Shown here piece by piece: positions 29,046 through 33,087 of a stretch of 64,000 bases of DNA. Source of the DNA: Myxococcota bacterium. Its GTDB lineage: Bacteria > Myxococcota_A > UBA9160 > JAFDDA01. The position numbers and the translations under genes are program-made. Every line of letters starts with the position of its first letter. Position 1 is the stretch's first letter. The stretch spans positions 544,001 to 608,000 of the forward strand of contig OZ245817.1 in NCBI GenBank assembly GCA_965228475.1, written 5' to 3'. The notes beneath the pieces are model-generated. The model ran no database searches, had not been told where the DNA came from, and saw only the letters and a program-made list of their open reading frames with translations.

Positions 29046-29152
29046 GCGGTCATCCTACCCGACCGCGCTTTGCGCTTGCACGCCAACGGCTGCCTGCGGC
29101 CCTTGGCATGCCGGCCCGGACGGCGCGGGCCCGGTGGTATGATCCGCACGCG

Positions 29153-31798
29153 ATGACCCCCGAGACACTGTCCGAAGCGATCGCAGATTGGGTCCAGCAG
29201 CAGCTCGAGGCGTTGGTCGCGCGGCACTTCCGCGGACTGGAGGTCCCGCGGGTCTTCGCGGGCCACCCCGTCGGCCCGGACGTCCGTGCGGACCTCGCCT
29301 TCACCCTCGGCCACCTCCACGGCGTCGGCCGGGGTGGCCTCGACGGTTCGCCGGCGCCCGAGGCGATCGCGCGCGTCCTGCGCCCGATCGACGGCGCAGC
29401 GACCCACACCTTCTTCTCCTACCGGGTCGCCGAGACGCTCGCAGTCTTCGGTGGCTTCGCGGACAACCCGCTGCTCGAAGGCTTCGACGAGGCGGAGCGG
29501 GAGAACGTCGCGGCCGCCTGCGACTCGACGAGCTTCGCCCCGCTCTGGCGGAAGAACCTGCTGCCCCGCAACTACGCGGCGGTCCTCGCCCGCTGCGAGC
29601 GCGGCCGGGAGCGGATCGGACTGCCCTTCGACGAGGAACTCCTGGCGCAGACCCTCGACGGCGCGCGCGAGATGCTCGCGAGCCATCCCGAGGGCTGGCT
29701 CGACGATTCGAACACCCGGATCGGCCGCCACGACATCTACAGCGCCGACGTCTACCTGTTCACCGAGCCCCTGGCCGACCGGCTCGGAGAAGCCTGGCAG
29801 ACCGGCATGGCCAACGCGCTCCGGCTGGTCGAGAATACCGTGCATCGCGACGGCACCGCGATCTCCTGGGGCCGCTCGACGGGCGCCCTGGCCCAGTGCC
29901 TGACGCTCGAACTCGCGGCGCTCGTCGTCGGGCGCGGCGCGGCCAAGGACCCGGCGCGCTGGCTCGCCCTCGCCGGCGCCGCGTTCCGCTCCTTCCAGGG
30001 CTACATGAGCGAGGGCTTGATCAGTGCTCACCAGCACCGCTCGCCCTACGAGTACCGCGGCCCCGGGCGCCGCCTGCAGATGACCCTCGACGCGCTCGGC
30101 AAGCTCGCCTTCGCGGCCCTCGAGCTGCGCAGCGCCCCGTCCGGGCTCGAGGCGACGCCCGCGTCCGAGTGCTTCCCGCCGCGGGACGCCTACCTCTCCT
30201 TCTCGGACGACCCGCCGGCCGGAGTGTGGAGCTACCGCTCGAAGGATGCGGCCTTCGTGCTGCCCGTGGTCGGTGCGACGCGTTCGGACTATCTGCCGGC
30301 GCCGCGCAACCCGGGAACCTTCGAGGTGCCCGTGGATTCCGAGATCGCGACGGGCGTGCCCTACGTCGTGAACTACGGCGGCCGCTTCGCCGGTGCCGGC
30401 CGGCCGAAGCGCGTGCGGAAGATCCCGGACGGGCTCGAGCTCGAGTACGAGGATTTCGTTCCGACGGGTCGGCTCGAGCGGGAGAAGGACCCGAAGCCCG
30501 TCCCGGGCTCACGCCACGTGGTGTTCCGCGTCGAAGGCCGAAGCCTCACCGGGGAGGAGACGCTGCGCTTCCCCGCGCCGCCCCAGGGCGTCGCGCTCCA
30601 GTTCGCCGAGACCCGGAAGCGGCCGCTGCGGGTCGAGTTCGAGAGCGAGACGCCGCACCGCGTGGACGGGATCGACACCGACGGGCTCGCCGAGTACCGG
30701 AGCTTCTGGTCGGAGCTGCCGCGCGTGCACCAGGTCGACCTCGAGCCGGCGAAGGAGATCCGGATGCGCTGGCGCGTCACGCCGAAGATCCGCGTCACCA
30801 CCACCGACCGCGACCACCACTACCACCGGAGCCTCTACGACACCCTCGCCGATCGCGTGTGCGACGTCGCCTTCGACCGAAGCTTCGTCGGGGCGCCGGA
30901 CCGCGCGCGGAGCTTCCTGCGCGACGTCGACGTCTTCCACCTGCACTGGCCCGAGTGGATCTACGGACCGGATCTCGGCGTGCATCGTGCGCTCATCGAG
31001 ACGCTGCGGGAGGAAGACGTTCGCATCGTCTGGACCCAGCACAACCGCGCGCCGCACCGGAAGGAGGCGGGCTACGAAGACGTCTACCAGCTCTGGGCGG
31101 AGCACTGCGACGCCGCGCTCCACCACAGCCGCTGGGGCGAGGCGTGGATGCGCGAGACCTTCCGCTACGGCGACCACACGCTGCACCGCCTCGTTCCCCA
31201 CGGTCACTTCGGCAACCTCATGCCCGAGGTCGCCGCGATCGACCGCGCGGAGGCGGAGCGCGAGCTCGGCCTCTCGCCCTGCGCCGTCCGCATCGGCGTG
31301 ATCGGCGCACCGCGCGCGGAGAAGAAGGTGCAGATGCTGATGGACGCCTTCGCCGCGGCGGCCCCCGGCGACTTCCAGCTCCTGGTGCTCGCCGCCGGGC
31401 CCGAGGACGTCCGCCCCGAGGACCCGCGCATCACCACGCTGCCCTTCGCACACGTTCCGCGCGACGTCTTCAACCGCCGGCTCGCCACCCTCGACTGCCT
31501 CGCGATGCCGATCGAAGGCGGCGACTACCTCACCACGGGGCAGTTCGCCGACGCCGTCGGCCTCGGACTGCCCGCGATCACCTCGGACTGGCCCTTTCTC
31601 GTGGAGATGCTCGGGGAGGCCGCCGTCGTCTACGGCCAGGGCCGCGAGGCCCTCGAGAGCTGCCTGCGAGGGCTCGACGCCGGCCGCCTGGACCGGGCCG
31701 CAGCCGCCTGCCGGAAGCTCCAGACGACGCTCGCTTGGGAGGCCATCGGCCCGCGGGTCGGCGACCTGCTGGAGGAGCTCGGCTCGAGCGGCCTCTAG
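29153..31798 (+). CDS. Large two-part protein: uncharacterised helical N-terminal region plus C-terminal GT-B (GT4-like) glycosyltransferase
   Basis: C-terminal ~330 aa show FHLHWPE, WTQHN, VPHGHF, IGAPRAEKK, TTGQFADAVGLGLPAITSD. N-terminal region contains WGRST. Confidence 0.7.
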   Translation: MTPETLSEAIADWVQQQLEALVARHFRGLEVPRVFAGHPVGPDVRADLAFTLGHLHGVGRGGLDGSPAPEAIARVLRPIDGAATHTFFSYRVAETLAVFGGFADNPLLEGFDEAERENVAAACDSTSFAPLWRKNLLPRNYAAVLARCERGRERIGLPFDEELLAQTLDGAREMLASHPEGWLDDSNTRIGRHDIYSADVYLFTEPLADRLGEAWQTGMANALRLVENTVHRDGTAISWGRSTGALAQCLTLELAALVVGRGAAKDPARWLALAGAAFRSFQGYMSEGLISAHQHRSPYEYRGPGRRLQMTLDALGKLAFAALELRSAPSGLEATPASECFPPRDAYLSFSDDPPAGVWSYRSKDAAFVLPVVGATRSDYLPAPRNPGTFEVPVDSEIATGVPYVVNYGGRFAGAGRPKRVRKIPDGLELEYEDFVPTGRLEREKDPKPVPGSRHVVFRVEGRSLTGEETLRFPAPPQGVALQFAETRKRPLRVEFESETPHRVDGIDTDGLAEYRSFWSELPRVHQVDLEPAKEIRMRWRVTPKIRVTTTDRDHHYHRSLYDTLADRVCDVAFDRSFVGAPDRARSFLRDVDVFHLHWPEWIYGPDLGVHRALIETLREEDVRIVWTQHNRAPHRKEAGYEDVYQLWAEHCDAALHHSRWGEAWMRETFRYGDHTLHRLVPHGHFGNLMPEVAAIDRAEAERELGLSPCAVRIGVIGAPRAEKKVQMLMDAFAAAAPGDFQLLVLAAGPEDVRPEDPRITTLPFAHVPRDVFNRRLATLDCLAMPIEGGDYLTTGQFADAVGLGLPAITSDWPFLVEMLGEAAVVYGQGREALESCLRGLDAGRLDRAAAACRKLQTTLAWEAIGPRVGDLLEELGSSGL

Positions 31799-31847: not shown

Positions 31848-31856
31848 TGGTACGCT
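31848..31856 (+). promoter_or_regulatory. Extended -10 element (TGG-TACGCT) for the DAHP synthase leader
   Basis: TGnTAnnnT, 8 nt upstream of the leader-peptide ATG, with no SD in between. Confidence 0.55.
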
Positions 31857-31864
31857 GATTCGAA

Positions 31865-31936
31865 ATGAGCGACCGCGCCTTCCAGACCGACTTCTACTTT
31901 GCCTGGTTCCGACCGGGGCGAGGGAAGTCCGTCTAG
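31865..31936 (+). CDS. Attenuator leader peptide MSDRAFQTDFYFAWFRPGRGKSV (Phe x4, Tyr, Trp)
   Basis: ATG at 31865 to TAG at 31934-36. The aromatic cluster TTC TAC TTT GCC TGG TTC lies immediately upstream of DAHP synthase. Below the ORF-track cutoff. Confidence 0.85.
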   Translation: MSDRAFQTDFYFAWFRPGRGKSV

Positions 31937-31960
31937 CGCAGCGCGCCAACAAGAATTCCC

Positions 31961-32001
31961 GAAGCCCCGAGAGCACGACGCCTCTCGGGGCTTCGTGCTT
32001 T
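31961..32001 (+). terminator. Attenuator (3:4) terminator hairpin
   Basis: Perfect 13-bp stem GAAGCCCCGAGAG / CTCTCGGGGCTTC with an 8-nt loop, followed by a weak U-tract (GTGCTTT). Confidence 0.7.
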
Positions 32002-32022
32002 CGGGCACCCAAAGGAACCGTC

Positions 32023-33087
32023 ATGCCCGAGGCCCTCGAGAACACCCATCTGGTCACCGTCGAACCCCTGACCCCGCCGGCGGAGGTCAAGCGTGCCCTG
32101 CCGAGCTCGCCGGCCGTGCGCGAGCGGGTCGTGGCGGCGCGCGCCGCCATCCGCGACGTCCTGCACGGCCGAGACTCCCGCCGCCTGGTGGCCGTGGTCG
32201 GGCCGTGCTCGATCCACGATCACGACGCCGCGCTCGAGTACGCCGCCCGCCTGCGGGCCGTGGCGGAGCGCACCGAGGACGCCCTCGTCGTCGTGATGCG
32301 GACCTACTTCGAGAAGCCGCGCACGACGATCGGCTGGAAGGGGCTGCTCAACGATCCGCGCCTCGACGGGAGCTGCGACGTCGCCGCCGGGATCGAGGAG
32401 GCGCGCCGCATCCTGCTCGACGTGAACGCCGCGGGCGTCCCCTGCGCGACCGAGGCCCTCGACCCGGTGACGCCCGACTACCTGGCGGACCTGCTCGCCT
32501 GGACGTCCATCGGCGCGCGCACGGTCGAGAGCCAGACCCACCGCCAGATGGCGAGCGGGCTCTCCATGCCCGTGGGGTTCAAGAACGGGACCGACGGCCA
32601 CGTCGATGCGGCGGCGAACGCCATGGTCGCCGCCGCGGAGCCGCACAGTTTCCTCGGCATCTGCCCCGACGGCCGGAGTGCCATCGTGAAGACCGCGGGG
32701 AACCCGGATCGCCACGTGATCCTGCGCGGGGGCAAGAGCGGCCCGAACCACGGGCCGGACTCCGTCGCCGAGGCCCTCGCCGCCGTCGGCGACCAGGGCA
32801 TCGCGCGCCCGGTCATGATCGATTGCTCCCACGGAAACTCCCGGAAGGACCCTGCGCGTCAGCCCGAGGTCTGCCGCGAGGTCCTGGCCCAGGTCCGGGC
32901 GGGCGAGACCGGCATCGCGGGTGTGATGATCGAGAGCAACCTCGTGGCGGGCGCGCAGACCTGGAAGCCCGGCGTCGCGCTCGCCCACGGCGTCTCCATC
33001 ACCGATGCGTGCCTCGGCTGGGGCGACACGGAGCGGCTCCTCGACGAGATCGCGGAGACGGTGCGCGCCGGAGCCGCGGCGGCCTAG
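32023..33087 (+). CDS. 3-deoxy-7-phosphoheptulonate (DAHP) synthase, class I-alpha (AroF/AroG/AroH type)
   Basis: VGPCSIHD, MRTYFEKPRTTIGWKG, IGARTVESQTHR, GFKNGTDG, IDCSHGNS, SITDAC; AAAGGA SD. Isozyme cannot be assigned by eye. Confidence 0.97.
   Translation: MPEALENTHLVTVEPLTPPAEVKRALPSSPAVRERVVAARAAIRDVLHGRDSRRLVAVVGPCSIHDHDAALEYAARLRAVAERTEDALVVVMRTYFEKPRTTIGWKGLLNDPRLDGSCDVAAGIEEARRILLDVNAAGVPCATEALDPVTPDYLADLLAWTSIGARTVESQTHRQMASGLSMPVGFKNGTDGHVDAAANAMVAAAEPHSFLGICPDGRSAIVKTAGNPDRHVILRGGKSGPNHGPDSVAEALAAVGDQGIARPVMIDCSHGNSRKDPARQPEVCREVLAQVRAGETGIAGVMIESNLVAGAQTWKPGVALAHGVSITDACLGWGDTERLLDEIAETVRAGAAAA

Follow-up and report, generated by a model that had tools for sequence, protein, structure and literature searches.

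DAHP synthase feeds three end products, and the cell therefore has to integrate three signals in the control of one gene. The simplest way to combine them would be one leader in which codons for Phe, Tyr and Trp all occur, the attenuation mechanism itself being textbook material. The locus considered here lies in a stretch of DNA of 64,000 nucleotides that was analysed as a whole (the window), and it raises the question of whether the region upstream of one DAHP synthase gene is such a leader and which of the three amino acids it would sense. The gene (positions 32023..33087, plus strand, as for all features described below) encodes a type I-alpha enzyme of 354 amino acids that exceeds the cut-offs of NF009395 and TIGR00034 (455 bits against 173 for the latter), and its best match among solved structures is the Tyr-sensitive enzyme 6agl (E 1.4e-117). 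The sequence AGGA is found at 32013-16. Since the next gene, encoding an SDR protein, is convergent, the DAHP synthase gene is probably monocistronic. On its other side, a co-directional ORF of 896 codons ends at 31798 and is followed by a gap of 224 nt up to the DAHP synthase start at 32023. The genome (5.0 Mb, 70% GC, 96% complete) was found to contain neither TrpR nor a type II DAHP synthase, and no aromatic leader was seen before its trpE-like and pheA-like genes, named via Pfam matches and the reading of neighbouring translations, or before its paralogous DAHP synthase gene. It also has an isoleucine leader, with a full U run.

The gap contains a uORF of 23 codons at 31865-31936, translated as MSDRAFQTDFYFAWFRPGRGKSV followed by a stop codon. 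It is preceded by a candidate extended -10 promoter, TG-G-TACGCT (31848..31856; TG at 31848-49 and TACGCT at 31851-56), with 8 nt between TACGCT and the ATG, while an SD match upstream of the uORF start and a TTG-type -35 box are both lacking in this copy. The leader was without variants across the three contig sets compared, and its peptide matched no NCBIfam family. The RNA is predicted to fold better than expected (z = -4.1, with 1 of 200 shuffles equally good), and a search of Rfam returned two weak matches (E 3.4 and 4), neither of them on the leader, and no relevant model. The four helices proposed in the preliminary description of this locus (1:2, 2:3, 3:4 and a fourth) are all complementary where they had been placed, three of them with corrections. 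The protector or pause structure 1:2 (31889..31929) pairs GACTTC with GAAGTC around GCCTGGT/ACCGGGGC and is present in the minimum-energy fold of the ribosome-free leader; its inner part, however, requires one G-U pair and one bulged G. Region 2 (31914..31926) consists of the antiterminator box CGGGGC (31914-19), which copies the 3' arm of the terminator, and of GGGAA (31922-26). Region 3 (31956..31973) combines TTCCC with the 5' arm of the terminator and is common to the antiterminator 2:3 and the terminator 3:4. The terminator hairpin (31960..31995) has the expected position and a perfect stem, of 14 bp rather than the 13 bp first described (31960-73/31982-95), with a loop of 8 nt and a folding energy of -28.7 kcal/mol. 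Its U-tract, TTCGTGCTTTC (31992..32002), is interrupted, with 4 T in the first 8 nt past the GGGGC core. A stock consensus scan of the leader region called neither a promoter nor a plus-strand terminator, which is explained by the missing -35 box and the breaks in the U-tract.

To what extent this arrangement is kept was assessed from the orthologous genes, a check that the preliminary description had itself proposed. Searches for the enzyme in related genomes, at differing thresholds, gave matches in 34 of 41 and in 87 of 193 genomes; 81 of the 89 enzyme matches of the larger search were taken, one of the others being located at a contig edge and seven being weak. A quick IQ-TREE phylogeny of 109 proteins with SH-aLRT support placed the leader-bearing enzyme of this genome in one clade (support 99) and the second DAHP synthase of the same genome in a separate clade of paralogues (support 100). 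The orthologue clade holds 68 rows from the order, one of them a duplicate protein that the tree includes a single time, and 64 of these 68 genes have an aromatic-rich uORF followed by a hairpin of the GCCCCGAG...CTCGGGGC type upstream; the element is lacking at L009, L018, L124 and L128. By comparison, it precedes none of the 18 rows of the paralogue clade from the same order. Four loci stand outside these counts, namely L019 and L165, which fall on other branches and have no leader, L026, for which there is no upstream DNA, and L020, whose alignment was too short for the tree though the leader is present. Outside the order, in the same class or phylum, an aromatic uORF was identified at 5 of 11 loci examined and, at 4 of these 5, the same hairpin core. 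Records under the names Binatia, Myxococcales and Planctomycetota also show uORF and hairpin together. The element was lacking at the loci examined from Nitrospirota (three) and at one from Binatia, all of the same enzyme clade.

A covariance model, R1, found one strong site in the genome under study (86 bits, the next at 32). Across the order it found sites in 56 of 121 genomes at E <= 0.001, many of which are training sequences. Five of the 22 non-training matches that were checked stand before DAHP synthase genes (G157, G004, G069, G088 and G162). The other 17 include one isoleucine leader, the rest looking like ordinary gene-end hairpins; these other matches (one at E 9.9e-7, the rest weaker than 1e-5) have no aromatic uORF, and none of the 22 places the element before another aromatic gene. 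The element is thus conserved across the order and tied to one DAHP synthase clade. These data bear directly on the trivial explanation that an AT-richer short ORF happens to adjoin a terminator of the usual kind behind the upstream gene, for which the co-directional ORF ending at 31798 would be a suitable candidate. Among 25,992 short ORFs of the genome, 42 are aromatic-rich (at least 5 aromatic codons in 10), and the uORF at 31865-31936 is the only one of these with a hairpin and a T-rich tail behind it; moreover, the 64 orthologues with the element have differing upstream sequences, and the helices covary. Coincidence, whose probability is negligible, is refuted by this conservation.

Family-wide features were studied in an alignment of 69 leaders, made up of the 64 orthologous ones, L020 and four named records. 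A promoter match of the form TTG-N16-18-TA was found in 35 of them, this copy not being included, and 34 of those 35 have an in-frame start codon downstream, which in 23 of the 34 stands 7-9 nt after the -10 hexamer, a frequency for which no null was computed. Less telling than this search anchored on the -35 box was a strict TANNNT search, by which a -10 box lies 3-14 nt before a start codon in 13 of the 69. The spacing in the relatives agrees with the 8 nt seen here, and, together with the missing SD, it gives indirect support to the earlier proposal that the uORF is probably leaderless or nearly so.

Covariation in the same alignment was compared with shuffled data; as the leaders are kin and were chosen for carrying the element, the shuffle counts are not to be read as probabilities. 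In the terminator 3:4, 10 of the 14 pairs have changed on both sides, amounting to 84 double-changed cells against 22.6 in shuffled alignments, and 0 of 500 shuffles were as high. For the antiterminator, each of the six box pairs is kept in 63-69 of the 69 leaders, and 2:3 with two flanking pairs shows 35 double-changed cells against 15.7 +/- 3.0 (again 0 of 500 as high); registers slid along the sequence pair at 49% or less, compared with 83% for the true one. The bulk of this compensation comes from the two flanking pairs, which are unpaired in 33 and 43 of the 69 leaders, and in the 6-bp core several double changes are seen at one pair only, from G-C to A-U five times. The antiterminator and the terminator, which share one strand and both covary, are mutually exclusive. 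Support from the family for the protector 1:2 is weak: the inner hairpin is paired at 68.5% against 66.1% in shuffled data, slid registers equal it in double changes, and its outer pairs are kept in 18-54 of the 69 leaders.

Folding constrained by a ribosome, another of the checks proposed earlier, was performed at equilibrium on nascent RNA ending at the terminator loop, the ribosome footprint being taken as +5, +7 or +9 nt by assumption. The putative sensor codons (31880..31909) are F6 (31880-82), F10-Y11-F12 (31892-900), W14 (31904-06) and F15 (31907-09). Without a ribosome, the box of this leader is held by the 1:2 structure. When the footprint is set at +7 nt from the A site, the 2:3 core forms with P = 1.00 for a ribosome at F6, F10, Y11, F12 or W14. 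At F15 part of the box is hidden, and from R16 through the stop codon 2:3 is lost. A stall at sensor codons would therefore free the box and a ribosome at the stop would block it. The same holds in the family, where 2:3 is lost in all 69 leaders once the ribosome has reached the stop codon and is permitted in 67, 63 and 66 of the 69 by stalling at one or more F, Y or W codons, respectively. As any codon upstream of the box passes this test of geometry, the result speaks for compatibility and not for codon specificity. Once the 3' arm of the terminator is out, the terminator wins at equilibrium at every ribosome position (P 0.90-1.00), and the switch must therefore be kinetic. In the ribosome-free state 2:3 is suppressed in 18 of the 69 leaders only; the protector is therefore not a family-wide equilibrium feature.

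Taken with the conserved uORF and the covarying 2:3 and 3:4, this geometry supports one main element of the preliminary description, a ribosome-coupled attenuator before the DAHP synthase gene. It is very likely that the element is a classical leader-peptide attenuator, counting together the readings in which it has three inputs or responds mainly to Phe. Evidence on the inputs comes from the distribution of codons. Aromatic codons account for 388 of 759 (51%) at codon positions -12 to -2 before the box, for 12 of 587 (2%) between the box and the stop, and for 3.7% in the DAHP synthase genes. Those before the box comprise 214 F, 89 W and 85 Y codons, and F, W and Y are represented there in 68, 67 and 64 of the 69 leaders, with all three in 62; Trp is missing in two leaders and Tyr in five, one of which is partly masked. 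The position of Trp is the most constant of the three: in 44 of the 69 it occupies the third codon ahead of the box, mostly ending 7-8 nt before it, and it remains in frame whether 7, 8 or 9 nt lie between it and the box. In one family (L005, L006, L008, L120 and L143) the aromatic run has become thinner and the Trp codon is retained. At the aligned Trp site TGG is found 45 times, and CGG and GGG 3 times each; this preference for TGG, although CGG would give the stronger pairing in the inner hairpin of 1:2, suggests that the Trp codon is under selection as a codon. Little weight is given to the excess of in-frame TGG (90 against 29 out of frame), as the frames were picked by their aromatic content and the figure is biased upward. 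In the leader under study, Tyr and Trp are each represented by one codon. On these grounds, sensing of all three aromatic tRNAs appears moderately probable.

Several known systems are close to this arrangement. In Corynebacterium glutamicum, aroR-aroF has a Phe-Tyr-Phe leader and is described as subject to ribosome-mediated attenuation (accessible parts of Mentz et al. 2013, PMC4046766, and of PMC3890552). According to a review that summarises Neshat 2014, likewise accessible in part, it is induced by Phe limitation and not by Tyr (PMC11802643), while the available text of PMC7356990 describes aroR as translational control by Phe and Tyr. The present leader resembles aroR, as described in these papers, in having a Phe-Tyr-Phe run (F10-Y11-F12) and in standing immediately before a gene for DAHP synthase; unlike aroR, its family adds a positionally conserved Trp codon in 67 of 69 leaders. 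The uORFC-13-1 motif of Acholeplasma combines a uORF and an intrinsic terminator before aroF and was predicted to be an attenuator (Brewer et al. 2021, PMC8632094); as far as that paper was accessible, it has an RBS, codes for Phe only and belongs to a low-GC lineage, in all of which it differs from the leader studied here. Attenuation has also been proposed for other type I-alpha DAHP synthase genes, as judged from the accessible portions of the respective papers, namely for aroA(I-alpha_Y)-tyrA in Vibrio (PMC1173090) and for aroF and aroH in Shewanella, where aroF is listed as sensing Tyr-tRNA (PMC2659441); these portions quote no sequence of a leader peptide.

In E. coli, where the DAHP synthase isozymes are under TyrR and TrpR, trpL and pheL are classical attenuators of the leader-peptide type (per the available part of PMC11802643); like the ilvB/ilvL leaders, they have the protector/antiterminator/terminator layout that is predicted for the present element, and they differ from it in the gene and in the set of codons. 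In Actinobacteria, the ilvB/ilvL leaders combine several amino acids within one leader (Ile, Leu and Val; accessible text of PMC10272879, PMC1262725 and PMC8079986), and in Streptomyces leaderless leader ORFs are described as common, with S. lividans trpL2 having a single Trp codon and no U-tract (PMC8079986, in part). The novelty that the preliminary description attached to the leader was accordingly overstated, as DAHP synthase attenuators have been published, multi-amino-acid ilv leaders are standard and Streptomyces has many leader peptides of the leaderless type. A Trp-containing leader before a DAHP synthase gene was not found in the full-text literature as far as it was accessible, most subscription journals and supplements lying outside it, and the parts of PMC3082878 and PMC3890552 at hand contain nothing further on Trp. 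An attenuator of the aroR kind is already known, and it is the positionally fixed Trp codon that makes this leader a variant.

Whether that codon and the single Tyr codon act as inputs is where the main alternative differs. The same classical attenuator might in practice be a sensor of Phe, perhaps with one other amino acid, if the pause at a single Tyr or Trp codon is too short and UGG is kept partly for its pairing in 1:2. Phe codons indeed dominate before the box, and aroR is reported in the accessible part of the review to answer to Phe and not to Tyr (PMC11802643). In the inner hairpin, UGG pairs with bases of the box (U-G in 60 of the 69 leaders, G-C in 46 and 39), and only 7 nt separate the end of W14 from the box, which puts this codon at the limit of what the ribosome would leave uncovered. 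The effect of any individual codon may also be doubted from the Streptomyces coelicolor ilvB leader, in which mutated candidate codons were without effect according to the available text of PMC1262725. However, a role in pairing would not explain why TGG is retained where CGG would pair better, why Trp stays in frame at all three box distances or why it persists in the family with the thinned run; and even with a footprint of +9 nt, codons located 7-8 nt before the box still permit 2:3 (mean P 0.97-1.0). A sensor mainly of Phe is thus considered possible but rather unlikely. The tested example that could be traced, aroR, has no Trp, and its single Tyr codon reportedly evoked no response, which bears on whether one codon per amino acid is enough; the 69 leaders, some of which lack Trp or Tyr, form a natural series in which codon number and box distance could be set against the response.

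A different kind of signal has also been considered for the conserved peptide, namely that of an arrest peptide responding, inside the tunnel of the ribosome, to aromatic amino acids in free form instead of to tRNA charging. TnaC is an example of the arrest-peptide type to which such sensing has been likened. A W-(F/Y)-x-x-G-A stretch is indeed conserved, at a fixed place in many leaders, but its G-A part is a reading of the GGGGC box, which is found in all three frames (51, 13 and 5 of the 69), and the distance from Trp to the stop varies widely. Furthermore, a stall on excess amino acid would activate a biosynthetic gene at a time when there is no call for its product. This mode of sensing is very improbable.

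The reading that is preferred here, with reasonable though not high confidence, is a classical ribosome-coupled transcription attenuator with three inputs, Phe, Tyr and Trp. Transcription would start at or within about 2 nt of the uORF AUG, and the ribosome would load without an SD. Hairpin 1:2 may, from its predicted folding, pause the polymerase until the ribosome catches up. When charged tRNA-Phe, tRNA-Tyr or tRNA-Trp is short, the ribosome would wait with F6, F10, Y11, F12 or W14 in the A site, at positions whose geometry was computed; the stalled ribosome would melt region 1 and spare CGGGGC, which would pair with the 5' arm of the terminator before the 3' arm emerges, so that the antiterminator forms and transcription continues into the DAHP synthase gene. 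When all three tRNAs are plentiful, the ribosome would cover the box up to the stop, the 14-bp hairpin would form and the transcript would end near 32000, probably in a leaky manner, given the interrupted U-tract. The resulting OR logic would let a shortage of any one aromatic amino acid raise the flux into the common shikimate pathway, and the largest response is expected for Phe, with its 3-4 codons. A more far-reaching proposal has an even chance of holding as a whole: that the leader is a true three-input OR gate, with its single Trp codon at the last position that leaves the box free for a stalled ribosome; that it is the main transcriptional control of aromatic synthesis in this organism, in place of the TyrR and TrpR of E. 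coli; that its inputs have been retuned by lineage, being Trp-centred in one family and Trp-free in two leaders; and that it represents a widespread class absent from the papers searched.

The output of the three-input attenuator is the last point on which the readings diverge. The preliminary description had taken the weak U-tract and the extra helix as pointing to a Rho-dependent or translational output, that is, to a uORF that governs Rho-dependent termination or to a fourth helix that frees the DAHP synthase start codon. The tail, with 4 T in 8, is weaker than in 54 of the 69 relatives (5 or more) and in the isoleucine leader of the same genome, Rho is present in the genome, the terminator fold of this leader places the start codon in a hairpin, and opening of the RBS here is 1.4 kcal/mol cheaper in the antiterminated state. 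Across the 69 leaders, however, the RBS is no more open when antiterminated (mean -0.7 kcal/mol, with 18 leaders above +1 and 30 below -1), and translational control was rejected, as these opening energies show no conserved state-dependent switch. The 86 nt from the uORF stop to the gene are largely paired, and largely paired RNA is a poor loading site for Rho. The claims made for the fourth helix (31966..32005) fared similarly. Its 13 bp are complementary, including one G-U pair, but with -21.9 kcal/mol it is less stable than the terminator (-28.7 kcal/mol) and has P = 0.05 in the ribosome-free leader, and since it needs bases up to 32005 it cannot form before the termination decision; past the decision point, its inner part is compatible with the antiterminator 2:3. 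It reaches at least 10 bp in 4 of the 69 leaders and 13 bp in this genome only, and was rejected as a family feature. A third G-run past the U-tract was likewise rejected as a conserved switch, being present in 28 of the 69 leaders, yet also at 16 of the 36 T-tailed hairpins that stand at ordinary gene ends in this genome.

Ordinary genes of this genome also end in interrupted tails, TTCGTGCATC and TTCGTTCGGGG among them, and a weak tail is usual here. An output of the non-classical kind is improbable. Among 110 strong gene-end hairpins, with genes crudely called, at least 4 T within 8 nt are found in 30 and at least 5 in 14. Given the weak tail, the U run of the isoleucine leader and the presence of Rho, the terminator of this leader may be leaky or assisted by a factor.

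The aromatic codon set is altered in several of the DAHP synthase leaders. In the five leaders of family f4 (L005, L006, L008, L120, L143), the aromatic run is thinned: a single Trp codon stands at the conserved site, Phe codons are few and Tyr is usually absent; a His codon is found upstream in four of the five, and their U-tracts are likewise weak. These leaders have possibly been retuned toward Trp. Three others (L003, L117 and L229) have no Trp codon preceding the antiterminator box, and the L229 leader carries a Phe-Gly repeat together with one Tyr. Throughout the genome that holds the window (G000, 70% GC), most gene-end hairpins have U-tracts that are interrupted in the pattern TT(T)CGTTTC, which suggests that intrinsic termination follows a less strict rule in this lineage.

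Outside the window, the same genome contains a second predicted leader-peptide attenuator (contig C1, about 4691585-4691720, plus strand), in which the leader peptide MFEAIGSRVIIIIAPSGGPAVR, with its stop codon, is followed by a hairpin whose U run is complete. The downstream gene encodes a 550-aa CimA-like citramalate synthase, whose best NCBIfam match, NF042433, scored under the cut-off of that model. A comparable Ile-rich leader was identified upstream of a similar CimA-type gene in another genome (G039, locus L238).

Upstream ORFs were also observed before DAHP synthases of other lineages. Four loci in records named Dehalococcoidia or Chloroflexi (L053, L065, L066, L076) have a distinct Tyr/Cys/Phe-rich uORF that lies some 240 nt ahead of the start of DAHP synthase and is accompanied by a predicted promoter, a hairpin and a U run. 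At one Polyangiaceae locus (L075), a Phe/Trp/Tyr leader precedes an enzyme that falls outside the window's clade.

Directly upstream of the window leader lies an 896-codon ORF (29108-31798, plus strand), to which the NCBIfam search assigned no family; its C-terminal third may resemble a glycosyltransferase. Genome G157 contains a second copy of the leader and DAHP synthase (L228, contig C1), in which the gene is disrupted by several frameshifts; this copy could be a duplicate that arose from assembly or from sequencing errors.
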